Positions 29,740-50,835 of a stretch of DNA of 64,000 nucleotides are shown here, in pieces (within the stretch, counting starts at the first letter, position 1; every line of letters begins with the position of its first letter). Where the stretch lies: the NCBI GenBank assembly GCA_963787835.1, contig CAWBEI010000002.1, positions 224,001 through 288,000 on the forward strand, read 5' to 3'. This DNA comes from Ignavibacteriota bacterium. Its GTDB lineage: Bacteria; Bacteroidota; Ignavibacteria; Palsa-1295. The position numbers and the translations under genes are program-made. A model generated the notes under the pieces. That model searched no databases and had not been told where the DNA came from. It was given only the letters and a program-made list of their open reading frames with translations.

Positions 29740-31077
29740 TTACAACTCGTACACCGAAATACTCACATTGGAAATAGTCACCGGACCAGAACCATCGGTA
29801 TTTTGCACGGACATATCGATCCAGATCTTCGCGGTCTGCTTCGTCGTGATAATTCCACTCAGCGAAAAAGGAAATTGGTTGACGTTATTGTGTGATTCCT
29901 GTAATTGTGCCGCCCCCAACGTTGTGCCCGTTGCTGTGACGCCATTGCCAGGTGCAGGAAACGTCGTTCCATACCGAAGCTGTAAGGAGCTTTGGTTTGG
30001 TGACGTACCCGATGTATTCAGCACGCTACCGGAGATGATGATAAAAAATAAACCGCTTCCTCCGGGGGTAATCGTGGCTGTACCACCCAATCCCATCATC
30101 ACGGCAGACGTGCTTGTGGTGGAAGCGGGATTCGATGGTGTGAACTGACCCACATTTACTGTGGCATTAGTAAAACTCGTTCCATTCGACTGCAGCACCT
30201 GACCGGCCGATCCAGACGTAGAAGGAAACGCAGTAGAGGTTGGAACATACGCTGTCCCATTTCCTTCAAGGATGTAGCCTGTCGTCCCTGTGCCGTTGAT
30301 CTTAAACCCCGTGGCAACATTAAGCACCCCAGCACCAGGATCTTTAGGGGTGGTAATGCCGAGCGTTGCGCCGCCGCTTGCATACAGATCAAAATCGGAC
30401 GCATAACCGCCATTATCTTGATTGTCCGAAATATCGAGATAGGAGGAATCGGTACTGGATGACGAAGTAAACGGGATGAGCTGCATGATCCAGTCCACCG
30501 GCTCATTCGTACCGCCCCACCCTTGCCCGTGCATGTGCAAGCGTGGCGACCACTGTTGAAGTGACGATGTCGCGGCGGTGGTATTGCTCAAAACAAGAGC
30601 ATCCACCGGTGCTGCGAGTGTTGAGGTCTCAGAAACATCCTGAGCAACCGTCCAGGTGTTCGCATGAGGAAGATCGATCTCAAGTGGCGTGGGCGAAATA
30701 CCCTTTCCGGTGAGCGTGGTGCCATCCACATTCAACGTGGTCCACGAAGTGGTGGTACCGTTCGAGGTAATGAATTGATTCGGCGAACCGGCACCATAAC
30801 TATAAACGGGATTCGTCACCACCCACGAAAGGTTACCAGAGCCATCGTTGGTGAGAAACCCGTTCGCAACTTCGGTGGCTGGCAAAATGAAAGAATATGG
30901 GGCAGTCAGCGTGGGGGCGGCGAGCGTCACAGTCGCTGTTGTACTCGACCCAGTTCCCGCAAGAACAAGGGATTTAGCATACGTTTTATCATAGACCTGC
31001 GCGGACGCATACGGCATGCCGCACGTCATGAGGATGCAAAAAACCGCCAGTGCAAAAAGAGGGATCGTGTACTTCAT
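29740..31077 (-). CDS. Secreted fibre-like protein (YDK tag, head type 1), 445 aa
   Basis: Signal peptide then AQVYDKTYAKSLVLAG; T/S/G-rich body; paralog of the next three genes; ends VSISVYEL. Confidence 0.8.
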   Translation of the reverse strand: MKYTIPLFALAVFCILMTCGMPYASAQVYDKTYAKSLVLAGTGSSTTATVTLAAPTLTAPYSFILPATEVANGFLTNDGSGNLSWVVTNPVYSYGAGSPNQFITSNGTTTSWTTLNVDGTTLTGKGISPTPLEIDLPHANTWTVAQDVSETSTLAAPVDALVLSNTTAATSSLQQWSPRLHMHGQGWGGTNEPVDWIMQLIPFTSSSSTDSSYLDISDNQDNGGYASDFDLYASGGATLGITTPKDPGAGVLNVATGFKINGTGTTGYILEGNGTAYVPTSTAFPSTSGSAGQVLQSNGTSFTNATVNVGQFTPSNPASTTSTSAVMMGLGGTATITPGGSGLFFIIISGSVLNTSGTSPNQSSLQLRYGTTFPAPGNGVTATGTTLGAAQLQESHNNVNQFPFSLSGIITTKQTAKIWIDMSVQNTDGSGPVTISNVSISVYEL

Positions 31078-31081
31078 GTCG

Positions 31082-32467
31082 CTATTCTAATTCTACAATG
31101 GAAATAACGACACCGGTAAGCTGTGCATCGATAGGAGTTCCACCGGTGTAGATGGATGTAAGTGCGGGATCGACCCAATACGTGTTGCCAACGGTTAGTC
31201 CCGTAACAATGGCATTCAAGGTAAAGAACCATACGTTGTCGCCATTTGCCATGGTGGCCGTAATAGTGCTCCCGACGGCCGTACCCGAGTACGTTCCGTT
31301 TGCAGCATAGCCGTTGGCTGGTGGATAGTTGGTCCCCGTTGGGCCATAATGGATCTGGGCGCTCTCCCCAAAACCATCGGCAGTAGGATAGCCTTGTGGG
31401 AGGGTCATATTGCCAGTGATAAGGATCAGTACAACACCGCTGCCAGCAGGAGTGAACTGAGCCGTACTTCCTAAACCCATCATGACCCCGGTCGTATTGT
31501 TCGTTGTTTCCGCTGGATTCGTCGAGATCGTATATTGATGGTTGTATGGGAAGGCCGAGGTAAATCCACCCGTGGTGTTCGAAAAGATCACATTTCCTGC
31601 GCTGCCTGCAGTCGTCGGAAAGGTTGCTGATGAAGCGACGTAATCGGTCCCATTCCCAACGAGTACCTTGCCGGTACCGGCAGCGCCACCGATCTGCAAG
31701 CCCGTTCCAACATTGAGAATCCCCGCTCCCGGATCGGTGGGAGAAGTGATGCCCAACGTTGCGCCTCCACTGGCGAACACATCGAAACCACTCACATACG
31801 CTCCGCCATTCAGAGAATGTTCGAAATCGAGATACGAGGTCGTTGGGCTTGTGGATTCACTGATCGGCACAGCCTGAATGATCCAGTCTGCGGATTGACT
31901 GGCTGCGGCCCACCCCTGGCCGGTAAAATGCACCCGAGGTGCGTATTCCTGCGTGCCGGATGCCGCAGTGGTGGTATTCTCCAACAGGAGTGCATCCACC
32001 GGACTGGCTGCTGTTGATGTCAATGAAACGGTCTGAGCAGCAGACCACAAATTGCTGTGCGCAAGGTTCAGTGCTAGGTTCGACGTAATTCCATTGCCCG
32101 TGAGCAAGGCATCCGTCGAGAATGCAGTCCACCCGACAACACTGCTGTTGTTGGTAGTTGAAAACGTGTTGGCCGTTCCTGGGGTTAGGTCCGTGACGGG
32201 GGTGGGAATCACCCAGCTACATCCGCCGGTCGTGGTATTCGTAATCTGAAGCACTCCGCTGGCATTCGTGCCAGGGAACATGACAGGAATGCTTGCGCTC
32301 AAGGTCGGGGAAGAGATCGTCAGGGTATTCGTAAGATCCGTTCCGTTCCCAGCAAGCGTGATCGATTTCGCATACATCTTATCGAACGCTTGCGCATAAC
32401 TCCCCTGGCTCGTGCCAAGCAGAATGAGCACAATGGCTGCGACTCCAATAATGATCTTATGCGTCAT
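31082..32467 (-). CDS. Secreted fibre-like protein (YDK tag, head type 1), 461 aa
   Basis: Signal peptide then AQAFDKMYAKSITLAG; shares the QEYAPR.H..G.GW...DWI.Q block; ends VISIVELE. Confidence 0.8.
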   Translation of the reverse strand: MTHKIIIGVAAIVLILLGTSQGSYAQAFDKMYAKSITLAGNGTDLTNTLTISSPTLSASIPVMFPGTNASGVLQITNTTTGGCSWVIPTPVTDLTPGTANTFSTTNNSSVVGWTAFSTDALLTGNGITSNLALNLAHSNLWSAAQTVSLTSTAASPVDALLLENTTTAASGTQEYAPRVHFTGQGWAAASQSADWIIQAVPISESTSPTTSYLDFEHSLNGGAYVSGFDVFASGGATLGITSPTDPGAGILNVGTGLQIGGAAGTGKVLVGNGTDYVASSATFPTTAGSAGNVIFSNTTGGFTSAFPYNHQYTISTNPAETTNNTTGVMMGLGSTAQFTPAGSGVVLILITGNMTLPQGYPTADGFGESAQIHYGPTGTNYPPANGYAANGTYSGTAVGSTITATMANGDNVWFFTLNAIVTGLTVGNTYWVDPALTSIYTGGTPIDAQLTGVVISIVELE

Positions 32468-32473
32468 GGCCGT

Positions 32474-33814
32474 TCAAAATTCTATCACCGTGATCGTTAC
32501 GTTGTTGATGCTCGACGTAAAGGAAGTGGCTTCCGCCGTTAGATCAAGATCGATCCAGTAGGTGTTTGTGGATGACAATCCGGTAACAACGCTGGTTGCA
32601 CTGAAAAAAAAGTAGTTGTCCGCGCTATAACTCTGCTCGGAAACCAAAGAGCCAGTGGTGGTTCCCACAGGGCCTGTGGTTTGGTAGGTCGGGGCAGCAC
32701 CGGTCCCGAAGCAGATCTGTGCAGTCGAAATATCCGGGGGATTTCCGCTGCTGTTCCACAAATTCCCGGTGGCGATAATGAGCACCGTACCACTGAGCGA
32801 CGGTTTGAAGGTCGCAGTCCCCCCAAATCCAAGCATAACATTATCTTTACTGTTCGTAGTCACATACGGGCCAGCGGTGAAGGTAAAGTTCGTGGCATTG
32901 GGTGCGCCGGAAATAAAATTCGTACCGTCGGACCGAAGAATATTCCCGCTTGCGCCAGCCGACGCGGGGTAGGTTGCTGTGGAGGGAACGAAGTCCGTGC
33001 CGTTCCCGATCAACAGAGTTCCATTCGCCGCTGCGCCGTTAACTTTAATACCCGTGCCAAAACTTAATACTCCGCTGCCGGGGTCCGTCGGGGATGCAAT
33101 CCCGAGCGTGGCGCCACTGCTTGAAAAAAGATCGAAATCCGATGAATACCCGCCCGTACCGTTTTGTTGATCCTCGATGTCGAGATAGGAAGAGGTCGGA
33201 CTGCTGGAAGAATTGACAGGCACCACCTGCGCGATCCAGTCGATCGCTTCGCTCGAACCACCCCATCCCCGACCGTTCCAATGCAGGCGCGGCGAATATT
33301 CCTGCGTACCGGATGCTGCGGGAGTAGTATTGCTAAGCACAATTCCATCGGTCGAAGTGGCGCCGATGCTTTGAGATGAACCTTGCGCGGCCGTCCAGAC
33401 ATTCGTATGCGTGAGAATCATCGCAAGCGCCGTACTGACCCCGTTTCCGGTCAGCGTTACGCCATCGACGCCGAGCGAAGCCCATGCGATAGCGCTGCTG
33501 TTGTTGGTGATGAGAAACTGGTTTGCAGAACCGGTTGGAATATCACCCACAGGAAGCCCACTCCACGATAGCCCGCCGGAACCATTATTGACGAGCGCAC
33601 CCGCTGCGTTCGATGCCGGAAGCGTGAGTGTGATCGAACTGGTGGGGGTAGCTGCTGAGATCGTGAGCTTATTCGCCGTGCTCGTGCCGCCGCCAGCGAG
33701 AATGAGCGATTGAGCATATTTTTTATCGTACGCCTGGGCGCCAGCTCGCGTCGATATCCCTGCCGCAAATGCGAGCAGGGCTAAGCCAACCACGGCAAGG
33801 TTATTCACTTTCAT
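32474..33814 (-). CDS. Secreted fibre-like protein (YDK tag, head type 1), 446 aa
   Basis: Signal peptide then AQAYDKKYAQSLILAG; ends VTITVIEF. Confidence 0.8.
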   Translation of the reverse strand: MKVNNLAVVGLALLAFAAGISTRAGAQAYDKKYAQSLILAGGGTSTANKLTISAATPTSSITLTLPASNAAGALVNNGSGGLSWSGLPVGDIPTGSANQFLITNNSSAIAWASLGVDGVTLTGNGVSTALAMILTHTNVWTAAQGSSQSIGATSTDGIVLSNTTPAASGTQEYSPRLHWNGRGWGGSSEAIDWIAQVVPVNSSSSPTSSYLDIEDQQNGTGGYSSDFDLFSSSGATLGIASPTDPGSGVLSFGTGIKVNGAAANGTLLIGNGTDFVPSTATYPASAGASGNILRSDGTNFISGAPNATNFTFTAGPYVTTNSKDNVMLGFGGTATFKPSLSGTVLIIATGNLWNSSGNPPDISTAQICFGTGAAPTYQTTGPVGTTTGSLVSEQSYSADNYFFFSATSVVTGLSSTNTYWIDLDLTAEATSFTSSINNVTITVIEF

Positions 33815-34014
33815 GTGTTAGTGTACGATCCTGCGAATGATGTGGAACATCCCAGGACTTGGGGAAAAATCGTTCTTTCGATCAATTGCCAACGTTCGAG
33901 CAGCAATAAGCGAGTTATGCCATCCCCTGATTCAGCAACCTGATATCAAACGCTCTGGGGTGGTAATAGGTTTTCAGCCATTGTACAGTTCATAGAATGA
34001 AAATATTCCTATTG

Positions 34015-34446
34015 CTATTCAAGTTCAAACTGCTGCCATTGATGATCGAACCCGAACATTAGCAAATGAGTCTGCTGCCCTAACATTCCTTTTACCTGGG
34101 GATGATCGGATCGGTCAAAGAACAGCCGGAAAAACATTCTATTATGTGCGGAATTATCGCAAATCAGGATAAGGAATGTTCCGGGAGCCACATTATCCGT
34201 AGGAAGATAAACCGATACCACTCGGCTCGGCGTATCGTTTAACACCGGCAATCCGTTCAGCAAGTGCTGAACAGGCGGATAGGAATTAAGTTCTTTATCT
34301 TCGGTGAGTGTATATTGTGCCGAAGGAAATACAAAAGGCCCGCCGCCCGATGAAACGGAGATCGGAGGCGGAATCGTGCGCGGTGCGGAGCAACCGCTCC
34401 ACACACAGGTTGCAACAGTGAAAAGCCCTGCCGCCATTCTAGACAT
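34015..34446 (-). CDS. Small hypothetical lipoprotein inside the fibre array
   Basis: ATG 34446 lies 14 nt after the upstream stop; MSRMAAGLFTVATCVWSGC lipobox-like signal. Confidence 0.6.
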   Translation of the reverse strand: MSRMAAGLFTVATCVWSGCSAPRTIPPPISVSSGGGPFVFPSAQYTLTEDKELNSYPPVQHLLNGLPVLNDTPSRVVSVYLPTDNVAPGTFLILICDNSAHNRMFFRLFFDRSDHPQVKGMLGQQTHLLMFGFDHQWQQFELE

Positions 34447-34460
34447 GTAGGGCAATCCTC

Positions 34461-36149
34461 TTATGGCAGTTCTATAACCGTGAACTGCACATTGTTCAAG
34501 GCCGAGCCCTGGCACCCACTCGCCCAGGTAGTCCAACCGTCAATCCAATAGGAGTGACCAACGGTCAAGCCGCTAACATAGGCGCTGACACAGAACGGCG
34601 CCTGCTCATCATGCTGACCAGACTCGACAGAAATAGTGCAAAGAGGTCCTAATGACGTTGCTGTTGAAGTAGCTGGTGTGGTACCCGCATGAGTTGGTGC
34701 TACATTCGTGGCGGCATCCTCATAATACATTTGGACCGCCGCTAAGGCGGTGGCTGTGCTGCTGCTGCTATTGGACATAAACAAATTTCCGGTGATGTTT
34801 ATGAGAAACCTTCCCGTCGATTTTGGCGTGAACGTATAGCTAGCCGAGTGTGAAAGCCCGACCCATTGCCCACTGGTCGTGGTATCATTACCTGGAGATG
34901 CGATGTTCGTGGACTGGTTATAATACTGCGGCGGTGAAGTGCTGCTGTTCCACTGCATGGTCACGGTATTACCCGTGATGTTTGAAACCTCCATTAATTG
35001 GCCGACTGCAGTAGGACCAGCAGCGGGAAGGATGTACGTGTATCCCGTAGTAGCCGCACCACCCTGAATCGTGGTTACAGTGGTTCCCGCCGTGGAATTT
35101 GCAAGGGCAAGAGATCCAGTCGTCGATGCAGCCTTGCCAAGGGTAAGCGCACCGGCAGAAGAAACCGACCAGTTCGAACTGGTGCCGAGGATATCCGTAT
35201 TGGTCGTCCCACCGGTAACATTGAGCGTGAGTCCGGTATTCGTTGCCGTGGTACCACTCCACGATCCGGTGGAACTTAAAGAAAGACCGGTCTTCGCAAT
35301 GCTTGTCGTGCTGCTGGTTGCATCGTTCAGGATGGTCGCTTCAGTGAAGGCGGTCGTCTTAGCAGGAGCGCCAGCCGTAACATCGAACCCTGCGCTGGTT
35401 TGCGCGGTGTATTGATTCGCGATAAAAGCGCCAGTCACGTCAGCAGCGACCAGCGAACGGAACGTTGGTGCCCCTGCTGATCCATTTGGCGCAGCAAATA
35501 CTGTGTTCGCCGCCTCAGAAGCCAGCGTGCCTGTTAATGTGCCCGTCGTAGTGACTGGGGAACCTGATATGGTAAAGATCGAGGGAAGTGCAAGGGCTAC
35601 GCTTGTCACGCCGGTATTAGCTATGGAGATGGAGCCGACGCCGTTCGTCACCGATACTCCGGTTCCTGCTGTAAGAGTGGTGAGCGAGTAATTCGTACCA
35701 TTCCCGATGAGCAGCTGACCGTTCGTAGGTGTCGTCGTCAGCCCCGTGCCGCCATTAGCGACCGGCAGTGCTGTGCCAGAAAGGGTTAACGCAAGCGTGC
35801 CGTTACTCGTGATCGGAGAACCACTGATCGAAAGGAAACTCGGAACCGTCATAGCAACTGAAGTGACAGTACCAATCGCCGACGTGGACCACGTTAGCCC
35901 ACCCGTTGTAGTATTAGAAACAAGGGCCAAACCGGTGGAACCCGGCAACGCCGCTGGCAGGGTAAGCGAGAAAGCTGTAGTCGGCGTCGGAGCAAGGATG
36001 GTGACCGTATGAACAACATCCGCCTGACTCCCTGCGAGCGTGATCGATTTAGCATACTCTTTATCCACTGCTTGTGCATGGGCACGCCCAGCCATGCCCA
36101 CTACCGCAGCGAGCATGATCAAATATACAAAGAAATGTTTGGTCTTCAT
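34461..36149 (-). CDS. Secreted fibre-like protein (YDK tag, head type 1), 562 aa
   Basis: AQAVDKEYAKSITLAG; tail-fibre-like GTVTSVAMTVPSFLS...LPVANGGTG...GQLLIGNG; ends VQFTVIELP. Confidence 0.82.
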   Translation of the reverse strand: MKTKHFFVYLIMLAAVVGMAGRAHAQAVDKEYAKSITLAGSQADVVHTVTILAPTPTTAFSLTLPAALPGSTGLALVSNTTTGGLTWSTSAIGTVTSVAMTVPSFLSISGSPITSNGTLALTLSGTALPVANGGTGLTTTPTNGQLLIGNGTNYSLTTLTAGTGVSVTNGVGSISIANTGVTSVALALPSIFTISGSPVTTTGTLTGTLASEAANTVFAAPNGSAGAPTFRSLVAADVTGAFIANQYTAQTSAGFDVTAGAPAKTTAFTEATILNDATSSTTSIAKTGLSLSSTGSWSGTTATNTGLTLNVTGGTTNTDILGTSSNWSVSSAGALTLGKAASTTGSLALANSTAGTTVTTIQGGAATTGYTYILPAAGPTAVGQLMEVSNITGNTVTMQWNSSTSPPQYYNQSTNIASPGNDTTTSGQWVGLSHSASYTFTPKSTGRFLINITGNLFMSNSSSSTATALAAVQMYYEDAATNVAPTHAGTTPATSTATSLGPLCTISVESGQHDEQAPFCVSAYVSGLTVGHSYWIDGWTTWASGCQGSALNNVQFTVIELP

Positions 36150-36191
36150 GTATTAATTTTTACCGTTAATTCCGAAGATCTGACAGGATGC

Positions 36192-39100
36192 TTATTTGGA
36201 TGAGACCACTCTCCACCCGCCGGTAGTATTATAGGTGGAATCATAGATCAATGTCAATATTCCGTCGGGCGCGAGGATCAGGCTATTACCGCTACCACCG
36301 ACGAGATGAATCACGTCCCCAGCCGTACCTGCATCACTATTGAAAGTGATATTATAACTGCCCGTATTCACTAGGATCATGACGCGACCGTCCGCGCCAC
36401 CTGTGATACCGTTTACAGTAGCTCCCGACGGACCTCCTGCGGAAATTTTGAAATAGCTGTTGGTTGTGCTTAACGCCCAGGCATTAGTGCTGCTACCGCT
36501 GGTTAGTTGCGTTGGGCTGTTAGAAGTCAGCGCCGCGCCACCGAATGTTTGGGTACCGGTCCAGGTGTTAGCATTGGTAAGATTGATGCCGAGTTCATGC
36601 GCTGCAACGGTGCCTACCTGCAAGGTTGCATCGTAATTGAGCACATCCGCATTCAGGGTTTTATTAGCGGTGGAACTATTCACCGAACTCACAAGCGCTG
36701 CAGCCTGCGCCGCCGTCGTTGGGAGGGTTTGTGTACCGGTCCAAGTATTAGCATGAGTGACATCAAGCGTGAGCGTAGTGGTTCCACCAAGGGCAACCGA
36801 ACCGCCGCCGGCCAAACCAGAACCCGCCGTGACCGTAAGGCTCGGATTTGCAAGTGCTGAGTTCGGAACCGCAGAAGCGTTGATCGTCACCGCGCCTGTT
36901 CCTCCGCTTAAGCTGATACCCGTGCCAGCGACTGCGGAAGTTACACCTGTATTAGAAAGTGTTACCGTACCGCCAAGCGAAACCGGCGAACCCGATACCC
37001 CAAGACCCGTACCGCCTGTCACCGTGATGCTCGAATTGGCAAGCGCAGAGTTCGGAACCGACGTCGCGTTGACCGTGATCGACCCAGCGCCGTTCGTGAT
37101 TGAAATTCCCGTGCCACTCGTAAGTGTTCCAAGCGAAAGAGTATTACCCGTCGTGTTGCCGATCAGCAACTGGCCGTTCGTGTAAGAGGTCTGACCCGTG
37201 CCGCCATTGGCAACCGGAAGGGCTGTGCCCGAAAGTGTTACTCCAAAGGTGCCACTTGATGTAATCGTTGCAGGAGAAACGGAAAGAAATGTTGGAACCG
37301 TCATGCCGACCGAAGTGACCGACCCGCTATTCGTAGTATTCAGCACTGTACCCGTAAAACTGAGACCCGAGCCAAGCGTGATTTCCTCCGGAACCTGATT
37401 TGTAGAGGCCGTCGGATTACCGAGTAGCGTAGTGTGCGTCTCGCTCTGCATCTTGGCATAAGTAACCTTATTCGCCCCGATCGTAATGAGACCGGCATCG
37501 GTAATCGTCGCATCACCGCTCATTGCAACAGGGTTCCACGCAGGTGTGGATGAATTATAGATGAGCATGTTTGCATCTGCCACGCTTGCCATCGAACCGA
37601 GTGGGGATCCGTTGATCTTCTTTACAGCCGTTGTGCCCTGCGGTCCCGTTACATCACCGGCGAGATTACCACTGAAATTCGTTGCCGTAGTTCCTGCGGG
37701 AAGCGTCACGGTTCCCGTGAAGTTCACCGTGCCAGCAACCGTAGTGTTGCTCGGGCCGGTGTTATTGCCAATGTTAATGTTCATGGCACCGGAGGTATCG
37801 CCAATATTGATAGGATTCGTACCGGTCACATCGATATCGGTCGCTCCTCCCGTTGTGCGCAGCGTTCCAGTGTTGTTAAAGCTGGTATTCGAGGTCAGTG
37901 TGGTGAAAGCACCCGTGCCTGGAGTGGTTGCACCGACCGTGCCATTGAATGCTCCCGCGATGTTGTTGCTCGCGTTCGTGGCTGTGACGGCACCGGTGAG
38001 CGTTGAAGCATTGGTAACCGTGAGGCCTGTGCCTGCGCCATTGAAGGTAGCATCTCCGCCAACCGTCATGGCATTCGCTACGGCAAATGTTGTTGCATGA
38101 GAACCGTTGACCGTTGCCTGTGCTACGTGTGTCGAGGTGTTCTGAAGCGTCACGTCCTGCGTCATCATCGCGGTATCGGCAGTGGCCGAAGTAGCATCGC
38201 CGATGAAAATATCATTCTTCGCTAAACCGAGAGATGAGGAGGATAACGAACCTGCGGGAAGCGTCACCGTGCCAGTGAAGTTAACCGTGCCGGCAAGCGT
38301 GGTCACGCTCGGGCCGGTATTATTGCCAATGTTGATGTTCATGGCACCGGAGGTATCGCCAATATTGATGGGATTTGTGCCCGTCGTACTGATATCTGTC
38401 GTTCCCGTAGTGCGCAGCGTTCCGGTCGTTTGGATGCTTCCGGTCGTATTGATCACCGTCGAACCGCCGATATTGCCGGCGCCCGTGATCTGTGCTGCCG
38501 GATAGGTCAGTCCGCTCGGGAGCGTCTGTGACCATTGCGGCGTGCCGATCGGAGATGCCGCATTAGTGATAAGAACCGAATTAGCCGATGGGGCAAGTGG
38601 CGTAGCTACGTTGCTCGTATTGCCGACCAACATATATTGATTGGTAAGCCCGATAGAACCCGCTGTAACTGAACCGGAAGGTAACGTAACCGTGCCCGTG
38701 AAACTTACGGCACCGGCGAGATATGTGGTGCTGCTGTCGCCGGGACTGCCAGCGCTGCCGTTATTACCGATGGTAACCACACCGCCTGTGCCCGCAGTCG
38801 CATCGATACTCGTGTTCGCAGCCGGCGCTGAAGCCGGGCTGTTAATATTTGTGTTGCCATAGACATTGGTCGTGCTCGTGCTGTTACCAATGTTGTTCGT
38901 TCCACCCGTCGCGCTGTTATCAATATTGGTGGTCGGATTCGAACCGCTGTTATTGAGGCCACCACCGCTCGGTGTGAGGATTCCACCTGTGAAGCTTGCC
39001 TGACCGGTATTCGTAACATACCATGAATCACCTGTGATGTCATTCACACCGGAACCCGGCGTGGCAGCATTCGACAGGGTAAGCGGCGTTCCAGATCCAG

Positions 39101-39644
39101 CACCACTTGCTGGGGTGTTAATCGTTTGCTTAGCCGTCCATGTGTTAGAATTCGCAAGGTTGATACCAAGTTTATTTGAACTAACCGTCAATGTGGAATT
39201 GATGTTGAGGACATTAGCATCTAACGAGCCAACAGCAACTTGACCTGTTCCACTGCCATAGTTATTGAGCGCGCCAACAATATCCGTTCCAGCAGTATTT
39301 TCAATGACTGTCGCCAGGGAGGTTCCCCCAACATCACCGGATAAGTTCACAGTGAGTCCGGAGGCTGGGTTGGTCCAGCTAAGACCGCCCGTCGTGGTGT
39401 TCATGGTAAGGACATATCCGACAACGCCACCAGGCTCCGTGCCAGGGAACGTCAGCGTGAACGATCCTGCGGCCGGAGTCGCCGCCGAGATCGAAAGCGT
39501 GTGCTTCGTATCCGTCCCATTGCCGGCGAGGACCACCCCTGTGGCATGAACGGAATCGTAGGTTTGAGAAAAGGCGCGAGGGGCAATGCCAGCCAGTAAG
39601 GCAAGCGTCACCGCAACCGTCAAAAAAGTGATCTTGTTTTTCAT
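36192..39644 (-). CDS. Large secreted fibre-like protein (head type 2), about 1150 aa
   Basis: MKNKITF signal, SQTYDSVHATGVVLAG; internal repeats; ends LIYDSTYNTTGGWRVVSSK. Confidence 0.85.
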   Translation of the reverse strand: MKNKITFLTVAVTLALLAGIAPRAFSQTYDSVHATGVVLAGNGTDTKHTLSISAATPAAGSFTLTFPGTEPGGVVGYVLTMNTTTGGLSWTNPASGLTVNLSGDVGGTSLATVIENTAGTDIVGALNNYGSGTGQVAVGSLDANVLNINSTLTVSSNKLGINLANSNTWTAKQTINTPASGAGSGTPLTLSNAATPGSGVNDITGDSWYVTNTGQASFTGGILTPSGGGLNNSGSNPTTNIDNSATGGTNNIGNSTSTTNVYGNTNINSPASAPAANTSIDATAGTGGVVTIGNNGSAGSPGDSSTTYLAGAVSFTGTVTLPSGSVTAGSIGLTNQYMLVGNTSNVATPLAPSANSVLITNAASPIGTPQWSQTLPSGLTYPAAQITGAGNIGGSTVINTTGSIQTTGTLRTTGTTDISTTGTNPINIGDTSGAMNINIGNNTGPSVTTLAGTVNFTGTVTLPAGSLSSSSLGLAKNDIFIGDATSATADTAMMTQDVTLQNTSTHVAQATVNGSHATTFAVANAMTVGGDATFNGAGTGLTVTNASTLTGAVTATNASNNIAGAFNGTVGATTPGTGAFTTLTSNTSFNNTGTLRTTGGATDIDVTGTNPINIGDTSGAMNINIGNNTGPSNTTVAGTVNFTGTVTLPAGTTATNFSGNLAGDVTGPQGTTAVKKINGSPLGSMASVADANMLIYNSSTPAWNPVAMSGDATITDAGLITIGANKVTYAKMQSETHTTLLGNPTASTNQVPEEITLGSGLSFTGTVLNTTNSGSVTSVGMTVPTFLSVSPATITSSGTFGVTLSGTALPVANGGTGQTSYTNGQLLIGNTTGNTLSLGTLTSGTGISITNGAGSITVNATSVPNSALANSSITVTGGTGLGVSGSPVSLGGTVTLSNTGVTSAVAGTGISLSGGTGAVTINASAVPNSALANPSLTVTAGSGLAGGGSVALGGTTTLTLDVTHANTWTGTQTLPTTAAQAAALVSSVNSSTANKTLNADVLNYDATLQVGTVAAHELGINLTNANTWTGTQTFGGAALTSNSPTQLTSGSSTNAWALSTTNSYFKISAGGPSGATVNGITGGADGRVMILVNTGSYNITFNSDAGTAGDVIHLVGGSGNSLILAPDGILTLIYDSTYNTTGGWRVVSSK

Positions 39645-39780
39645 TGCACTATTCTGAATCATATGGTTGGGACCCTGCTCGCGCACAACGTCCCCTGAAA
39701 ATTAAATTCCAAAAAATCGTTCAACTACTAATAACCGTGTCGTGATCTATTGGAAAAAGATCCCGAGGATCCGGGCCGCA

Positions 39781-39806
39781 GCAGCACATCGTTGATGATG
39801 TGCTGC
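39781..39806. other. Intergenic perfect 10-bp stem-loop
   Basis: gcagcacatc-gttgat-gatgtgctgc with partial outer pairing, between two fibre genes; no U-tract. Confidence 0.6.
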
Positions 39807-39872
39807 AATGCGCGACCCGATCTCTTCGATATTCATTTCCATTACTCTTATCCTTCGATGCGTCGATCGCGA

Positions 39873-42800: not shown

Positions 42801-43532
42801 CGTACCACCCGTCGCGCTATTATCAATGTTGGTGGTCGGATTCGAACCACTGTTATTGAGGCCACCGCCGCTTGGCGTGAGGATTCCACCAGAGAAGCTT
42901 GCCTGGCCCTGGTTCGTTACATACCATGAGTCGCCAGAAATGTCATCACTGCCCGCCGCACCAGTATTTGTTACCGTAAGTGGGGTGGTAGCCGTTGAGG
43001 AGCTGAAGTTTTGCGCACCCGTCCATGTGTTAGGATTCGTAAGGTTGATACCGAGAGCATTGGTGCTAACCGTCAACGTGCTATTGATGTCCAGCACATT
43101 AGCATCCAAGGAGCCAACGGCAACTTGGCCGATTCCACTGCCGTAGTTATTGAGTGCTCCAACGATGTCCGTTCCAGCGGTATTTTCAATGACCGTAGCT
43201 GCGGACGTCCCCCCCACATCACCGCTCAAATTCACGGTGAGTCCGGAGGCAGGGTTGGTCCAGCTCAGACCCCCCGTCGTGGTGTTCATGGTAAGCACAT
43301 ACCCGACAACGCCGCCAGGCTCCGTGCCCGGGAACGTCAGCGTGAACGAGTTTGCCGCAGGAACGGCCGCGTTAAGCGTCACCGTTTTTCCGGTGTTCGT
43401 TCCCCCTCCGGCAAGTATCACTTCCGTGCTGAAGTCGGATTTATAGGTTTGCGCGTTCACAGTAGTGGCCGGCAGCAGCATCGCATATGCAGCAAGCATC
43501 GCGACTGGAATCGCAAGTTTAAGGTATTTCAT
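39873..43532 (-). CDS. Large secreted fibre-like protein (head type 2), 1219 aa
   Basis: AQTYKSDFSTEVILAG; N-terminal third closely similar to the 36192-39644 protein; repeated GDSSTT...VNFTG modules; ends LIYDGSKWRLIGAE. Confidence 0.85.
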   Translation of the reverse strand: MKYLKLAIPVAMLAAYAMLLPATTVNAQTYKSDFSTEVILAGGGTNTGKTVTLNAAVPAANSFTLTFPGTEPGGVVGYVLTMNTTTGGLSWTNPASGLTVNLSGDVGGTSAATVIENTAGTDIVGALNNYGSGIGQVAVGSLDANVLDINSTLTVSTNALGINLTNPNTWTGAQNFSSSTATTPLTVTNTGAAGSDDISGDSWYVTNQGQASFSGGILTPSGGGLNNSGSNPTTNIDNSATGGTNNIGNSTSTTNVYGNTNINSPVTGPDANTDIDATGDKGVVTIGNNGTGSGDSSTTYLAGAVDFTGTVQLPSGSVTAGSIGLTNQYMLVGNTSNDATPLAPSANSVLITNAASPIGTPQWSQTLPSGLTYPAAQITGAGNIGGSTVINTTGSIQTTGILRTTGGGAADINTTGTSPVNIGDTSGAMNINIGNSAGPSTTTVLGNTNINSPATGPDNNTDIDATGSMGVVTIGNNGTAGATPPYSDSSTTYLAGAVNFTGTVNIPAGDLNLGLASADIFVGNGATPSIATGVAMSGDVHIDNTGKTTIQPSAVTNGDLANDATTVTAGSGLSGGGSAVLGSGTTLSINDAYGNTWSTLQTFNGGLTETGNANLNNSPANTVVNSTTNIDAGTGTEGVINIGNNGGTTPGDSSTTNMAGTVNFTGAVNIPAGDLNLGLAYENIFVGNNGTPNVAAPLAPSSNSVFITAGSDHTTPEWATTLPSDLTIPTLTASSSTNGVAGAALSLNNTDVSGTSLDVSGTGNTWNVTNTGVATFNGGVNTSDGNASNISNTIGSSGTGSTTTINGANTNINNSTTGSIVNSTTNLDAGVGSEGVINIGNNGSVGNPGDSSTTNIAGAVNFTGAVNIPAGDLNLGLASADIFVGNGATPSIATGVAMSGDVHIDNTGKTTIQPSAVTNGDLANDATTVTAGSGLSGGGSAVLGSGTTLSINDAYSNSWSTLQTFSTVTSTGNTTIDVPSPAGATGTTNINAGTGTTLGNINIGNNGTAHTIGTLDSSLTTINGDVNLTGNVDFTGTVKLPAGSVTPSSLSLTTSHLFVGNASSDAEDVGMTGDAGIVFTAGTPDVGKVTVSAASGASGFTVTNATQLNGTLTAVGQTTLGSTALSSATVAAAATLTLTTSNSAYLLTATAAPVTVNSITGANTTAGQIITLVNTDPTNNITLHSNGSLVLNGGDVIMTPGGSVTLIYDGSKWRLIGAE
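40681..42050 (-). repeat. Near-identical internal duplication of about 0.27-0.3 kb, offset 1086 bp
   Basis: AGDLNLGLASADIFVGNGATPSIA...LSINDAY is encoded twice (blocks begin at + positions 40681 and 41767). Confidence 0.85.
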
Positions 43533-43616
43533 GTGTTGTTTCGTGAATTAGATTAATGGAGATGAAGTTAGGAATAATCGCAAAAATCGCTAAGTTATCG
43601 CAAAAACACTTTGTAG

Positions 43617-45017
43617 CTAATCGTTTGTCGAGACCAGTACCCACTTACCAAGGTGAGATGGGTCCGCATTGTCGTTCGTGTCGTAAAGAAATGTTGCCGC
43701 CCCTTTTTGGCCAAGTAGAATGGGCTTGCCGCCAGGGAGATCGAACTCGTCCACGGAAGCAGAATTCGCATCCAGGTTCGTGATCTGGATGATGTCGCCA
43801 GGATCGCTGCTCACGTTTGCGATCGTTACCATTCTACCGTCTGGAACGCTCGTGCTTGAAATTCCGCTGACGTTGATCTGCTTCGCAGGACTATTGGTGT
43901 TCGAAAGACGAATATACCCAACGGAATTAGCAACTGTATAAGGACTTTGATCCGTCGAGACGGCGTCAGATGCAATTGTTGGGGTTACTGTCGCCCCGTT
44001 GGTGATGTAGGACACCGCATGGGTGGTAGGATCCACGCCAAGCACCTGTCCGTCTGTACCCTGAGGAAGTCTTGAGAGGGCCGTTGTAGAACTTGCAACA
44101 AGAATGTCTCCGGTGGCGTACGTGCTATTGCCAGTTCCTCCTGCGACAGCGTTGACGGGTGCTGCCGGAGCATTCGCATTCAGCGAGGCCGCGATGTCGG
44201 TGCTGGCCGATTGGTTCGCCGCGATCGTTGGATTTGGATAGGTATTTGCAAGGTCGCCTCCGGCATTTCCGGAGGGAGCCGCTCCGATGGCGGTAAGTTG
44301 TCCGCCTGGGGTGACCGTGATGGTCGTATTATCAACAGAAACCACGCCAACGGAACTGGACGTTGCGATCGGAAGGTCTCCCGTGGGAATCGTTCCGGTG
44401 TTCGTTAAATTATCATTAGCATCGGTAAAGACCGGCATCGAGGCCGTAAGGCCAGCGATGTTCACATTTCCGGAGGTAACCGAAAGCGCGGTACCGCTCG
44501 CAACGGTATTGCTCGCTACGATCGGTGCGTTCGCATTAGATATATTCGAAAAGCTTTTTTGACCACTAATTGCCTGAGCGCCCTGGGTCATGACGAAACT
44601 CGCATTGGCTCCGGATGCTGGGATTGTGTCGATAAATGTGGATGTGCCTGGGTTCGCGGCCTGAATTTTAACATAGCCGTTTCCTCCAACATTGTAGAAT
44701 TTGAGCGTTCCCGTAAGCGGGGTGTAGGGAGTGAGCGCATTAGATGGTTCGCCGATATTAGCGTTTTGAAGATGAAGTATTTGCTCCTCACCCATATTGA
44801 GATTGGAGACGGAACGGCCGTTAAACGTGAGCGTGTTCGAGTTTGAACCGCCGAGGACCAGATTCCCGTCGATCGTGGTGTTGCCAGAAGATGTATTAAG
44901 AAATACATCCTGCTGAACGGTCAGGGTTCCATTGATGACTTGATTCTGCGCGAATACCGTATCAACTCCTCCGAGCAGGAAGAGGCACGCTAAGCCTATT
45001 TTAGTTATTTTTTGCAT
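43617..45017 (-). CDS. Secreted fibre-like protein (head type 2), about 466 aa
   Basis: Signal peptide AQNQVING; PSGNAGGDLANTYPNPT and GGTGNSTYATGDILVA modules; ends FLYD...GKWVLVSTND. Confidence 0.8.
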   Translation of the reverse strand: MQKITKIGLACLFLLGGVDTVFAQNQVINGTLTVQQDVFLNTSSGNTTIDGNLVLGGSNSNTLTFNGRSVSNLNMGEEQILHLQNANIGEPSNALTPYTPLTGTLKFYNVGGNGYVKIQAANPGTSTFIDTIPASGANASFVMTQGAQAISGQKSFSNISNANAPIVASNTVASGTALSVTSGNVNIAGLTASMPVFTDANDNLTNTGTIPTGDLPIATSSSVGVVSVDNTTITVTPGGQLTAIGAAPSGNAGGDLANTYPNPTIAANQSASTDIAASLNANAPAAPVNAVAGGTGNSTYATGDILVASSTTALSRLPQGTDGQVLGVDPTTHAVSYITNGATVTPTIASDAVSTDQSPYTVANSVGYIRLSNTNSPAKQINVSGISSTSVPDGRMVTIANVSSDPGDIIQITNLDANSASVDEFDLPGGKPILLGQKGAATFLYDTNDNADPSHLGKWVLVSTND

Positions 45018-45112
45018 GTTTCGCAATGTTCACAAAATTCGCACTTGTAACCCTCATCCAGCCCCGCGATGCATCACCATAATGCGGCGCGAAACCGGAA
45101 AAAAGACCGAAC

Positions 45113-48100
45113 CTATCGGCTCGGATTCACAATTATATAACCTACATTCACCGTCTTATTTGCCGTTGAAGTTTTACCGCTCAGTACATTCTGAGTAAGC
45201 ACCAAAGTAAAGTGACCGCTTGTCTGCCCCGTCGCTTGCACCGTGTATGTTGACTTTCCAGCATCGGGATCATTTTGAACCGTCGCCATAATAATGCTTG
45301 TAGATGAGCAGTACTCATTGCCCACCTGAAAATCTGCTTCTTGAATGTAAGGACCAGATTCAGATGCAAATCCCGACGCAAGTTGAACCAACCCCGAAGG
45401 GCCTTCCGATCCGGATACAGCGTTGTTTACCGTCGTGACACCGCTGCCGTTTTCGCCGTTCGGATTCGACGTCATTCCCATCGTCAGCTCACCGTTCTCG
45501 ACATCCAGCGCCACATTTGTTTGGCCGTCTCCCGTTTCCCCATTTCCGCCCTGCGCAAGCACGCCGATGCTTTCAGTGTTGGTGGCAGAATTGCCGCTCG
45601 CAAGACCCCAAACGCCAATTACGGTTCTTCCCGAGGAATTACCTGCGGTTCCGACCGCCTCACCACGAACGCCAAAGGAGCCCGTGAAACCAGAGCCGCC
45701 AAAATTATAGTCATTATTCAGTTCACTATACGAGGTGGTCGCGTTGGTTACACCATAGATTCCAGAAATAGAGCCTTGTGCAAGAATACCGTTCGGGTAA
45801 TTAGCACTTGTAATTCCGATAGCAGCACCTGAATGGTTTGTATTGTCGGAGTTCGAACCCGCCATCTTGATCGAGTAAGTAGGAGTCGATGCCGTGCTGG
45901 AAAGCCCACCCGCAGTAAAAATATCACCTGAAACGCCCTCCAATTTGGCTGCGATGTCCGGTGCATGTGTGGTACCTACAAGGAGGCCAAAAGAACCCGC
46001 TGTAGCAGTAGTCGTTCCGTTGACGGTAATTCCAGCCGAGGATGCACCCGGTGTGAAAGTCGCCGCGATTGCAGTGTTGGTCGATGTGCTGCCGGTTGCA
46101 GAAACATTCAGACCGGTTGCAGTTCCACCGGATGTAGCAATAGACTTAATAGTGGCCCCCAACGCGCTTGCAACACCCGCAGAAGGGTATTCCACATCAA
46201 ATAGCTCATCTCCCGTAGTCGCCGTAATCTGTGCATTGGCAGGAGCGACATTATAATTCACGGCTGTACCGGTGTTCACAGTATTAAGCACTGTACCGTT
46301 AAAGGTTAGCCCCGATCCCAGCGTGATCTCGCTCGGAGCGGCCGATGCTCCGGTCGGATTACCGAGAAGAGTGACCGTGCTTTCCTGCTGAATATCGCCA
46401 TACGTCACTGCATTCGCGGTGATCGATGTGGCATTACCAACCGACGTCACCGGACCCGTCAGGTTCGCATCCGTCGTTACCGTGGCCGCATTACCAGAGA
46501 TGCTGATCCCCGCTGTGCCCGCCGAAATATTCGCCGCCGTCAGGTTCGTGAGTGCCGAGCCATTACCCGCAGCATAGTTCGTACCTGTTAACGTATTCAT
46601 CGCCGCAGTCACCGTGATCGGCGCAGCGCCCGTGAACGTCACACCGTTGATCGTTGCACCCGGAGAAAGCGCGGAAGCCGTCGCTGCATTACCCGATGTG
46701 TTCGACGTGATCGTAGCCGGAAGGTCCGTCGCTGCGATCGAACGGAAGGCCGGAACACTGCCCGCCGTCGTATTCGCAAAAAATTGATTTGCACTCGCTA
46801 CCGTCGATAATGTAAACGACAGTGCAGGAGTCGATGTCGGCGTGGCAACCGACGTCGTGAACAATGGGCTCAAGTTGCCGCTCGAGAACGAGGTAACTGT
46901 GCCGCCGCTACCGGTGGCTGTCAGGGTCGTTCCACTAAAGGCAAGACCGGAGCCGAGCGTGATCTCGCTCGGAGCGGCCGATGCTCCGGTCGGATTACCG
47001 AGAAGAGTGACCGTGCTTTCCTGCTGAATATCGCCATACGTCACTGCATTCGCGGTGATCGATGTGGCATTACCAACCGACGTCACCGGACCCGTCAGGT
47101 TCGCATCCGTCGTTACCGTGGCCGCATTACCAGAGATGCTGATCCCCGCTGTGCCCGCCGAAATATTCGCCGCCGTCAGGTTCGTGAGTGCCGAGCCATT
47201 ACCCGCAGCATAGTTCGTACCTGTTAACGTATTCATCGCCGCAGTCACCGTGATCGGCGCAGCGCCCGTGAACGTCACACCGTTGATCGTTGCACCCGGA
47301 GAAAGCGCGGAAGCCGTCGCTGCATTACCCGATGTGTTCGACGTGATCGTAGCCGGAAGATCCGTTGCCGCGATCGAACGGAACGCCGGAGTGCTGCCAC
47401 CGGTCGTGTTCGCGAAAAATTGATTCGCTGCAGTCACCGTCGATAATGTGAATGACAGTGCAGGAGTCGATGTCGGCGTGGCAACCGACGTCGTGAACAA
47501 TGGGCTCAAGTTGCCGCTCGAGAACGAGGTAACTGTGCCGCCGCTACCGGTGGCTGTCAGGGTCGTTCCACTAAAGGCAAGACCGGAGCCGAGCGTGATC
47601 TCGCTCGGAGCGGCCGATGCTCCGGTCGGATTACCGAGAAGGGTGACCGTACTTTCCTTCTGAATATCGCCGTACGTCACTGCATTCGCCGTGATCGATG
47701 TGGCATTACCAACCGACGTGACCGGACCCGTCAGGTTCGCATCCGTCGTTACCGTCGCCGCATTGCCACTGGTGCTGTTCGTGATCGCGCCGCTGCATCG
47801 ATAACCGATGCCGAGATGCTGCCCACTGTCGGGTTCGGATAGGTGCCCGTCAGGCCGCCGCCCGCTGTGCCGCTGGGTGCCGCTGTCACCGTAATGTTCG
47901 AACCGCCTGTGAAGAGTACACCATTGATCTGGGCACCCGGAGAAAGCGCGGAAGCCGTCGCTGCATTACCCGATGTGTTCGATGTGATCGTAGCCGGAAG
48001 GTCCGTTGCTGCGATCGAACGGAAGGCCGGAACACTGCCCGCCGTCGTATTCGCAAAAAATTGATTTGCACTCGCTACCGTCGATAATGTGAATGACAGT

Positions 48101-50835
48101 GCAGGGGTCGAGGTCGGCGTGGCAACCGACGTTGTGAACAATGGGCTCAAATTCCCGCTTGAGAACGAGGTAACCGTTCCGCCGCTACCGGTAGCCGTCA
48201 GGGTCGTTCCACTAAAGGCGAGACCGGAGCCAAGCGTGATCTCGCTCGGAGCGGCCGATGCTCCGGTCGGATTACCAAGAAGGGTGACCGTGCTTTCCTT
48301 CTGAATATCGCCGTACGTCACCGCATTTGCTGTGATCGATGTGGCATTACCAACCGACGTCACCGGACCCGTCAGGTTCGCATCCGTCGTTACCGTGGCC
48401 GCATTACCAGAGATGCTGATCCCCGCTGTGCCCGCCGAAATATTCGCCGCCGTCAGGTTCGTGAGTGCCGAGCCATTACCCGCAGCATAGTTCGTACCTG
48501 TTAACGTATTCATCGCCGCAGTCACCGTGATCGGCGCAGCGCCCGTGAACGTCACACCGTTGATCGTTGCACCCGGAGAAAGCGCGGAAGCCGTCGCTGC
48601 ATTACCCGATGTGTTCGACGTGATCGTAGCCGGAAGGTCCGTTGCTGCGATCGAACGGAACGCAGGAACACTGCCCGCCGTCGTATTCGCAAAAAATTGA
48701 TTTGCACTCGCTACCGTCGATAATGTGAATGACAGTGCAGGAGTCGAGGTCGGCGTGGCAACTGACGTCGTGAACAATGGGCTCAAGTTGCCGCTCGAGA
48801 ACGAGGTGAGCGATCCACTGTTTGTAGTGTTCAAAACAGAGCCCGTAAAGCTTAAACCCGAACCCAGCGTGATCTCGCTCGGAGCCTGGTTCGTCGCAGC
48901 CGTCGGATTGCCAAGCAATGTGGTGTGCGTCTCGTTCTGAATATTCGCATACGTCACTGCACCATTCGTGATCGTCGTCGCATTACCGACCGATGTGACC
49001 GGACCCGTCAGGTTCGCATCCGTCGTTACCGTGGCCGCATTGCCACTGGTGCTGTTCGTGATCGCGCCCGCTGCATCGATAACCGATGCCGAGATGCTGC
49101 CTACCGTCGGGTTCGGATAGGTGCCCGTCAGGCCGCCGCCCGCTGTGCCGCTGGGTGCCGCTGTCACCGTAATGTTCGAACCGCCTGTGAAGAGTACACC
49201 ATTGATCTGGGCACCCGGAGAAAGCGCGGAAGCCGTCGCTGCATTACCCGATGTGTTCGATGTGATCGTAGCCGGAAGGTCCGTTGCTGCGATCGAACGG
49301 AAGGCCGGAACACTGCCCGCCGTCGTATTCGCAAAAAATTGATTTGCACTCGCTACCGTCGATAATGTGAATGACAGTGCAGGGGTCGAGGTCGGCGTGG
49401 CAACCGACGTTGTGAACAATGGGCTCAAATTCCCGCTCGAAAATGAGGTGAGCGATCCACTATTCGTGGTGTTCAAAACAGAGCCCGTAAAGCTTAAACC
49501 CGATCCCAACGTGATCTCGCTCGGAGCCTGGTTCGTCGCAGCCGTCGGATTGCCAAGCAATGTGGTGTGCGTCTCGTTCTGAATATTCGCATACGTCACT
49601 GCACCATTCGTGATCGTCGTCGCATTACCAACCGAGGTCACCGGACCCGTCAGATTCGCATCCGTGGTTACCGTGGCCGCATTGCCACTGGTGCTGTTCG
49701 TGATCGCGCCCGCTGCATCGATAACCGATGCCGAGATGCTGCCTACTGTGGGGTTCGGATAGGTGCCCGTCAGGCCGCCGCCCGCTGTGCCGCTGGGTGC
49801 CGCTGTCACCGTAATGTTCGAAGCACCCGTGAAGTTTACACCGTTGATCTGGGCACCCGGAGAAAGCGCTGAAGCCGTCGCTGCATTACCCGTCGTGTTC
49901 GACGTGATCGTAGCCGGAAGGTCCGTTGCTGCGATCGAACGGAACGCCGGAGCGCTACCACCCGCTAAGTTAGCGAAAAATTGATTTGCACCCGCCACCG
50001 TCGATAACGTGAACGACAGCGCTGGGGTCGTCGTCGGTGTCGCAACCGATGTTGTGAACAATGGACTCAGGTTCCCACTTGAAAACGACGTCACGGTACC
50101 ACTGCTCGCCGTGACATTCAATGTGGTTCCGGAAAAGCTAAGCCCAGAACCCAGCGTGATCTCCTCCGGAGCCTGTCCTGATCCCGTCGGATTGCCCAAC
50201 AAAGAGTGAGCACCCTCATTCTGGATCTTACCGTAGGAAATGGTGCTATTTGTGATGTCATTGTTAACTATGGCACTCCAGCTTGGCGGCGTTGAGCCAT
50301 GCAACACCGTGTTCGCACCACCGTTCGCGATAGTAACGAAATTCCCGCTGCCATCGGTCGAGACATTCGAATTCGGAGTCAAGGCACCGGCTGCCGTTAC
50401 GATCCCAAGTTGTGCCGTCGTGGCATAGTCCCACGCACCATCGCTTCCGCCGTTATGGCCATCGCCGCTTAAGCTTGGCTGGTTCGGATACAGCCAGTAG
50501 GGAATAGTTACCGTGGTAGGATACGGAGACGCTGTTGGTGTTAATGGGCCAACATAAAGAAATCCGCTCTGGGCATTATTCGTCGGAGGAATGGGAACTT
50601 CCCAGATAAGAGGCGCATACGGCGGCGAGGTATGAGACCAGGCATTTGCTTCCGGACTTCCATAGAGCGGCGCCTGAATTGAAACGGTGTGTCCATGATA
50701 ATCATCCAGCACGAGCGCACCGCCCGCAATACCTCGAACCTGACCGATGGCATCTTGAGTTAACACGGTTCCCGCAAAGGCAACGAGAAAAAGGCATGCA
50801 CGAAAGGGAGAAGGGGAAAGATTGGCTTTTTTCAT
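45113..50835 (-). CDS. Giant secreted repeat fibre protein (about 1907 aa after repairing a 1-nt deletion near 47790; LDD tag, head type 3)
   Basis: Joins ORFs 47749-50982 and 45113-47680. One repeat copy reads gcgcc-gctg where sister copies read gcgcccgctg, giving 641 rather than 642 bp. Signal peptide starts at ATG 50835. Confidence 0.85.
46290..50100 (-). repeat. Six tandem 636/642-bp coding repeats
   Basis: Homologous anchors at 46812, 47448, 48089, 48725, 49367 and 50009 (spacings 636, 641, 636, 642, 642). Confidence 0.92.

Follow-up and report, generated by a model that had tools for sequence, protein, structure and literature searches.

Across the family of an uncultured soil bacterium, genes for predicted exported fibre-like proteins stand in a fixed order with respect to the types of their two ends. 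We analysed a 64,000-nucleotide window from an Ignavibacteriota bacterium (contig CAWBEI010000002.1, positions 224,001 to 288,000), in which an array of such genes occupies positions 29740-50835. The array holds eight co-oriented fibre genes, all on the minus strand, and one small lipoprotein gene (g6). It is transcribed in the order g1, g2, g3, g4, g5, g6, g7, g8, g9, with g1 at the 50835-45113 end. The new part of the finding is that a gene ending in a C-terminal domain named the alpha tip is followed by a gene with a short N-terminal leader of class A1, and this in turn by a gene with a leader of class A2. An earlier note on this DNA, which proposed a new surface-fibre system, overlooked this tip-to-leader order, the most unusual feature of the array. 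We consider it very probable that the array proteins are Sec-exported fibres built from phage tail-fibre modules and resembling the MAT fibres of Bdellovibrio bacteriovorus. The fixed order suggests chain assembly, and the evidence leaves us evenly divided on whether class A leaders dock on the tip of the preceding trimer to build a multi-segment adhesive surface fibre.

A fixed gene order across relatives

The gene order was followed in the whole host genome (G000) and in 40 stretches from 22 relatives, picked around class A matches, which gives 23 genomes. Three types of gene recur in succession: one with a non-A start and an alpha tip, one with an A1 leader and a beta tip, and one with an A2 leader and a variable tip. 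Alpha and beta tips are both of the XD type, our label for a gp9/XD1-like C-terminal domain. Each of the 22 A1 genes directly follows a gene with an XD-type tip. A class A start occurs on none of those preceding genes, and 5 of the 22 preceding genes carry the MAT-type class C domain instead. At their own ends, 18 of the 22 A1 genes have an XD tip, two have it in a frameshifted piece and two are cut by contig ends. The A1 gene is therefore XD-tipped in 20 of 20 assessable cases, and an A2 gene comes next in 19 of these 20. Among 76 adjacent pairs, the upstream tip is of the XD type for 45 of the 57 class A genes and for 4 of the 19 non-A starts, the latter total being an undercount (see below). 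The A1 set was defined by the leader motif, and a positional definition (the first class A gene after a non-A gene) returns the same set bar one case at a contig end.

Outside this set, a metagenome scan with the alpha tip found 13 loci. An A1-like leader comes next in all eight strong loci, two of which repeat sequences already counted, leaving six new ones; a class A gene comes next in none of the five weak loci. Where the new loci are complete, the A1 gene ends in an XD tip and is followed by an A2 gene in five of five. In a sample of 200 other genomes of the phylum, only one has the alpha tip at E<=1e-12. A literature search, weak because general terms dominated it, found no report on such fibres in Kapabacteria or on chained MAT fibres.

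Conservation and covariation of tips and leaders

By cross-genome sequence comparison, the alpha tip and the A1 leader are the most conserved segments. The alpha tip is conserved at 46%, against 29% for the shaft ahead of it, and the A1 leader, including a fixed glutamine at position +1, at 59%, against 26% for its own signal peptide. The 11 XD tips that are not succeeded by a class A gene reach 26% (two doubtful rows dropped), and the end tips of A2 proteins 22%. The alpha tips cluster on a quick tree, with 2 changes against a shuffled mean of 17.9. Over all 43 pairs, tip similarity follows leader similarity with a partial r of 0.38 (p 0.0005) when the flanking segments are controlled for.

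N-terminal classes of the fibre family

The family is not confined to 29740-50835: the host genome holds at least 33 members, with further arrays on contigs C1 and C4. Class A counts 10 genes in the host genome, of which g3, g4, g5, g7, g8 and g9 lie in the array. Class B comprises g1 and others, class C has 11 genes, and a few proteins, such as g2, start in other ways. A class A protein consists of a leader of about 17 residues followed directly by the shaft, without a globular base. At E<=0.001, class A occurs in 23 of 24 family genomes and in 0 of 16 genomes of other families, some weak matches being to the shaft repeat; at 1e-6 it is found in 23 of 34 genomes. A profile of the A1 N-terminus matched 9,340 of 1.84 billion proteins, and among the top matches listed it mostly aligns through positions of about 18-66, as an internal shaft repeat. 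On these sequence searches, class A is specific to the family, and its first 17 residues or so are the distinctive part. Most class B proteins also begin with a short leader, which shows weak likeness to that of class A (hhalign E 0.0014, probability 18%).

Class C is defined by an N-terminal domain of about 110 residues, and one class C protein ends in Peptidase_S74. The class C profile gives no significant match on the 10 open reading frames (ORFs) of the array, against 11 elsewhere in the genome, and no similarity was found between classes A and C. The domain heads 18 of 150 long fibres taken from the matches of another profile, some with an S74 motif, and it also appears in Atlas clusters of Bacteroidota and Myxococcota. 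Judging by architecture and motifs, class C presumably corresponds to the MAT N-terminal domain.

Several loci elsewhere in the host genome show how the pieces are combined. A third array (G000:C4:4198-17452) has the same alpha, A1, A2 order with an extra XD-tipped segment, and its last gene is frameshifted. A class C fibre of more than 4,170 residues (G000:C4:370147-383486), frameshifted near its end, shares the tandem repeats of g1 at about 81% identity, so that the same shaft stands on a different base. The class C protein that ends in Peptidase_S74 (4.7e-9; G000:C2:368775-370952) is the most canonical MAT-like member of the genome. At G000:C2:1002232-1008094, a pair of fibres with N-termini of a fourth type and tips like that of g1 comes directly after a protein with a type IX secretion system (T9SS) C-terminal domain (CTD), a layout that is possibly a carrier arrangement.

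Shaft modules and predicted tip folds

The resemblance to phage tail fibres that the earlier note had seen in the letters is borne out by profile searches. PHROG tail-fibre family 31660 matches g4 (3.8e-18) and g5 (3.8e-8), PHROG tail-fibre family 1833 matches g1 (2.6e-11), and Pfam places Phage_depo_C on the g3 tip (1.6e-7) and DUF5907 on the g1 repeats. A shaft repeat is common to the array and to long secreted fibres, and Foldseek comparison of the tip models with fibres agrees with these matches. Scans of the 10 array ORFs with Pfam and NCBIfam at E<=0.05 found no T9SS CTD, YadA, autotransporter or S74 domain, as had been said before (TIGR04131 was not run alone). The compact C-terminal heads described earlier are present, although they are of three kinds and not one, and the same TNF-like tip occurs on class A, B and C proteins.

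The alpha tip of g2 (43620-43994) is predicted as a beta-sandwich with a pLDDT of 93.5. The best PDB match of this model in Foldseek is Solidus gp83 (E 1.1e-4), the one match of 442 below E 0.001; further matches include the N-terminal domains of CBA120 TSP4, T4-type gp10 and gp9, StcE and CpaA. Among predicted proteins of viruses, the model has 164 matches at E<=0.001, and several of these are tail fibres. In the light of a published comparison (PMC8825819), the matches to XD-holding proteins, StcE and CpaA point to XD1 as the counterpart of the XD-type tip. A sequence search of the PDB with the XD profile found CpaA at E 0.0025, and no meaningful match came from the same kind of search with the g5 tip or with the class C profile.

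For the g7 tip, the model (pLDDT 88.8) has 55 matches at E<=0.001, to TNF/C1q-like trimers such as the binding domain of a cyanophage short fibre (3.3e-6), the lectins PLTL and BC2L-C, Pgp3 and BxpB/ExsF. The Atlas gives phage C1q-domain clusters for g7 at 0.91. None of 108 pattern matches of g7 among named genomes was confirmed. From these models, the g2 tip is predicted to be T4 gp9/XD1-like and the g7 tip TNF/C1q-like. The folds and PDB matches of the tips make it likely that the array proteins are trimeric, and the TNF-like tips would presumably bind glycans. The capping-loop motif of MAT proteins found loose matches only, in g3 and g4.

Comparison with known fibres

The MAT proteins of B. 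bacteriovorus are trimeric fibres displayed on the surface; they combine a signal peptide and phage-like shafts with tips that can be swapped, of which some are TNF-like and bind glycans, and Table S3 of that study includes examples from the FCB group (PMC10769870). The array shares with the non-S74 group of MATs what looks by eye like a signal peptide, the phage-fibre-like shaft, the mosaic tips including TNF-like ones and the large family of paralogs. The claim of a new system was thus overstated, because MAT proteins with a signal peptide, swappable tips and an unidentified surface partner had already been published (PMC10769870). All 21 MATs have a conserved domain, rich in beta structure and about 130 residues long, after the signal peptide, whose binding partner awaits identification (PMC10769870), and a 2026 review of the field, in its accessible part, adds no anchor (PMC13689555). 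The host genome does have 11 class C proteins, one with Peptidase_S74, which lie outside the array. In contrast, the eight array proteins are without the class C domain, and six of them start with the leader of about 17 residues. Judged by sequence, the array would act like MAT fibres and yet falls outside their definition by the N-terminal domain. MATs are moreover described as single-protein fibres, and no ordered multi-gene chain is mentioned in the available text of that study (PMC10769870). Unlike Bdellovibrio, the host shows no evidence of predation, and no secretin was found in its genome.

Trimers that dock on trimers are known from branched or segmented receptor-binding complexes of phages, T4 gp9/gp10 with their fibres and CBA120 TSP1-4 (PMC8825819), which include several of the best PDB matches of the g2 tip model. 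In these phage complexes the jelly rolls XD2 and XD3 dock and XD1 is a spacer, whereas the XD1-like fold of the array is C-terminal (PMC8825819). The array also differs from them in having no baseplate or sheath and in consisting of chromosomal genes with signal peptides. A likeness to the proposed chain is offered by the F-ENA spore fibres (ExsF/F-Anchor/F-ENA/F-BclA), which combine a short leader, an anchor, a stalk and a C1q-like tip, and in which leader peptides dock on the C-terminal domain of the preceding trimer (PMC12357932). The g7 tip model matches BxpB/ExsF among TNF-like trimers. On the other hand, F-ENA belongs to the Gram-positive spore surface and has collagen stalks and polymerising DUF4183 subunits (PMC12357932). 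Trimeric autotransporters of the YadA family and T9SS-anchored adhesins resemble the array as fibrous or surface adhesins exported via Sec; unlike in these, YadA_anchor is absent from the array and the genome, and the T9SS CTD from the array proteins.

A proposed chain and its alternatives

We infer signal-peptide cleavage, trimer formation, surface display and docking alike. In the proposed assembly, each protein would cross the inner membrane by Sec and then trimerise. The g2 trimer would form the base segment, held by its own N-terminus with the alpha tip outward, and the A1 leader of g3 would dock onto this tip. The A2 leader of g4 would in turn dock onto the beta tip of g3, and g4 would bring another XD-type tip. 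One of g5, g7, g8 and g9, each with an A2 leader and an interchangeable, lectin-like TNF/C1q-like tip, would cap the fibre, while g1 would be a separate one-piece fibre. For the outer-membrane step, we would tentatively favour a passage tied to T9SS, the only large protein exporter found; the earlier description of an uncharacterised route stands for this step. Tentatively, and with somewhat more doubt than we attach to the docking, the array may represent a new Gram-negative appendage, in which domesticated trimers would be joined by the docking codes A1/alpha and A2/beta and would cross the outer membrane without a known secretion signal.

Several observations weigh against docking. In all, 17 of 62 class A genes are not directly behind an XD tip: 12 of the 57 with an upstream fibre gene follow another tip (8 TNF, of which two actually have g6 in between since lipoproteins were filtered out, and 4 other), and for 5 of the 62 the stretch contains no fibre gene upstream. 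The comparison set holds 11 XD tips that are not succeeded by class A, and one of the weak metagenome matches has a class C gene behind its XD tip. The total of 19 non-A starts is an underestimate, because a crude signal-peptide filter labelled some true genes as fragments, which were dropped as downstream partners. Within classes the covariation is weak (partial r 0.15 for A1, p 0.14, and 0.15 for A2, p 0.036), and in A1 leader similarity follows the shaft upstream of the tip just as closely as it follows the tip itself (0.378 and 0.374, respectively). The relatives among the compared genomes are kin and not independent. The tip of one gene and the leader of the next are adjacent in the DNA, so that recombination within the shafts would move both as a cassette whether or not they bind, and the pattern might in part be due to gene linkage alone. 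Meanwhile, XD1/gp9, the fold that the tip resembles, has been described as a phage spacer and, for CpaA and StcE, as a glycan binder, the known docking domains being XD2 and XD3 (PMC8825819). Finally, class B proteins with a short leader are often first or alone in their locus, and the absence of a base therefore does not force docking on a tip.

In a different account, the array encodes independent one-piece MAT-like fibres whose N-terminal types A1, A2, B and C would each bind a separate socket on the cell surface. Tips of every kind, XD among them, would then bind external glycans, and the order would be that of an inherited operon with co-travelling tip and leader junctions. We regard this as a serious possibility, improbable on balance. 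It agrees with how MAT fibres act as far as is known (PMC10769870), with the glycan-binding XD1 fold of CpaA and StcE (PMC8825819), with a within-class covariation no stronger than shared ancestry, and with the orphan A2 genes and short-leader class B genes that stand alone. What it leaves unexplained is that A1 genes are always XD-tipped while A2 tips vary, with a terminal-type tip in 0 of 20 A1 genes; that the alpha-tip gene swaps B, C and other starts, never A (0 of 22); and that the conservation of alpha tips is roughly double that of end tips.

The tips and leaders might otherwise be export or assembly signals: T9SS would take the fibres across the outer membrane by way of a carrier protein or a non-canonical C-terminal signal, and the upstream product would serve the next protein as a transient chaperone. 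The genome does encode SprA and at least 150 matches to TIGR04183 (150 of 253 candidates scored), it has no secretin and no YadA anchor (the YadA search was positive on its E. coli control), and 4 of 25 family genes outside the array adjoin a gene matching TIGR04183, that is, a T9SS cargo gene. We nevertheless hold such a role unlikely: the array contains no T9SS cargo gene, the tip fold is phage-like, the terminal A2 proteins bear unrelated tips, and no consistent T9SS partner gene was found beside family members. As for a remnant of a prophage or contractile injection system, or an assembly artefact, the phage-fibre modules and the frameshifts in g1, hflX and the PAS kinase gene could be read that way. 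This reading is largely refuted and we give it almost no weight. Phage_sheath_1 (PF04984), the only phage-structural family searched genome-wide, is unmatched in the 98% complete host genome, with 3 of 14 controls positive, and none of 43 pattern matches of the alpha tip among viral contigs proved to be a relative. All eight proteins have signal-peptide-like starts, the synteny with hflX or mdh is kept in many relatives, and pieces of the region have matches, mostly at 99% or above, among the short-read contigs of 4 runs. The PHROG, Pfam and Foldseek matches, the lack of a tail-sheath gene and the housekeeping flanks kept in relatives support the earlier view of a host-domesticated family of phage-fibre-like secreted proteins.

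Genes of the array

The eight co-oriented genes, their size range from 445 (g9) to about 1,900 residues (g1, 1,907 when read through) and the low-charge bodies agree with the earlier description: T+S+G+N+A make up 52-65% of the fibre proteins and charged residues 5-9%. That description was incomplete in omitting the ninth gene, g6. From g1 to g9 the intergenic gaps measure 95, 84, 228, 42, 20, 200, 6 and 4 nt, and the GC content is 0.52-0.58, against about 0.49 on the flanks. Signal-peptide-like starts, assigned by eye from the sequence, are present on 8 of 8 fibres and consist of a basic n-region, a hydrophobic core and A-x-A followed by Q. A glutamine at +1 is a trait of Bacteroidota.

The giant fibre g1 (45113-50835) has a class B N-terminus, tandem repeats of 212/214 residues (DUF5907) and its own tip type. 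It is read as two ORFs, 47749-50835 and 45113-47965, with one G missing near 47789. Two sister copies of the repeat have the extra base at the break position, and the repeats are spaced by 636/642 nt, with a single 641 at the break, which lies outside what the sequencing reads covered. The one-base deletion that splits g1 is likely an assembly error, because the nearby hflX and PAS kinase genes are also split.

The inferred proximal segment g2 (43617-45017) has 466 residues, a non-A N-terminus and the alpha-type gp9/XD1-fold tip. The putative middle segment g3 (39873-43532; 1,219 residues) combines the A1 leader with a beta-type gp9/XD1-like tip, the one matched by Phage_depo_C. Its leader (43404-43451), the first 16 mature residues, is the family-specific part of class A, and the next 50 residues or so are the widespread shaft repeat. 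A probable extra middle segment, g4 (36192-39644; 1,150 residues), has an A2 leader and a gp9/XD1-like tip, and its N-terminal part aligns with that of g3 over 716 columns at 61% identity. The candidate terminal adhesin segment g5 (34461-36149; 562 residues) carries an A2 leader and a TNF/C1q-like tip. An A2 leader is likewise found on g7 (32474-33814; 446 residues), a putative terminal segment with the predicted TNF/C1q-like tip, and on its paralogs g8 (31082-32467; 461 residues, 44% identity) and g9 (29740-31077; 445 residues, 46% identity), whose tips belong to the TNF-like family. Beyond the array, a class B fibre of 427 residues on the minus strand (58266-59549), upstream of hflX, has a shaft module in common with g4 and g5.

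We notice terminator-like hairpins after g3 (39762-39775) and after g1 (45107-45124), and in relatives the gaps behind beta tips tend to be longer than those behind alpha tips. These hairpins and longer gaps may tune the ratios of segments. A 12/12 match to the sigma-70 consensus (36228-36257), which lies inside g4 at its 3' end and a short way upstream of g5, is possibly due to chance, and Bacteroidota promoters depart from this consensus. Overall, the numbers of promoters and terminators come close to those in shuffled sequence (19 against 14.2, and 17 against 17.4). The window contains no tRNA, and positions 26000-60000 gave no Rfam match.

The lipoprotein gene g6

The gene g6 (34015-34440, minus strand) encodes a lipoprotein of 141 residues with an uncertain start. 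The G-C of its lipobox is invariant in 6 of 6 aligned homologues, and the claim that the array has no lipobox is right for the fibres and wrong for the array as a whole. We considered g6 as a general anchor and rejected it, because only 2 of 35 family genomes carry the gene. Its likeness to XD-type tips is weak and not significant (hhalign probability 0.1%); with a profile built from tips only, the score is 7.1 bits for one homologue and 2.2 for the copy in the window, where the highest among 1,800 shuffles is 4.5. In a metagenome scan for g6, none of 30 pattern matches was genuine. In the second array (L001/L002, G000:C1:9985-33200), five class B fibres are followed by a paralog of g6, which lies directly behind a TNF-tip gene. 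Two of the class B genes there come after XD tips; from this layout, class B leaders may also chain.

Host genome and flanking genes

At 98% completeness, the host genome amounts to 3.57 Mb, spread over 7 contigs. Its MDH, encoded beside the array, is 82-96% identical to the nearest named relatives (Ca. Kapaibacterium, Ignavibacteriae palsa_1295 and similar), and the host is thus probably a member of Kapabacteria. The metagenome runs with a near-identical array are soil metagenomes of one study. RNA run X6 gave short pieces only, mostly less than 95% alike, from relatives. The array is flanked by the housekeeping genes hflX and mdh, which are kept in relatives. Both hflX (55431-56731) and the gene of a PAS-domain hybrid histidine kinase (51610-55081) appear as two overlapping ORFs, and hflX is intact in relatives, which suggests indel errors in the assembly.

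Between mdh and g9, at 29375-29660, lies a dispersed non-coding repeat of about 170-300 nt, which looks like a miniature inverted-repeat transposable element. It has 67 BLAST matches in the genome, 43 of them of at least 120 nt, and no Rfam or tRNA match. Beside mdh we also find a lipoprotein-like ORF (26658-27419) without a Pfam match, which adjoins mutL in one relative, and a DUF2807 (GIN domain) protein (27590-28318).

Significance

The array offers a small pair that can be tested: the leader has 16 residues and the tip 110, and more than 20 natural variants exist of each. If docking is true, it would be an assembly principle that is not described for MAT fibres in the available text (PMC10769870); the reach and specificity of such a fibre could be changed by exchanging its end pieces, and the tips and leaders would provide orthogonal trimer-to-trimer connectors. 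If docking is false, the genes would still form a MAT-like repertoire that spans the family and has new types of N-terminus, in a lineage of uncultured soil bacteria.

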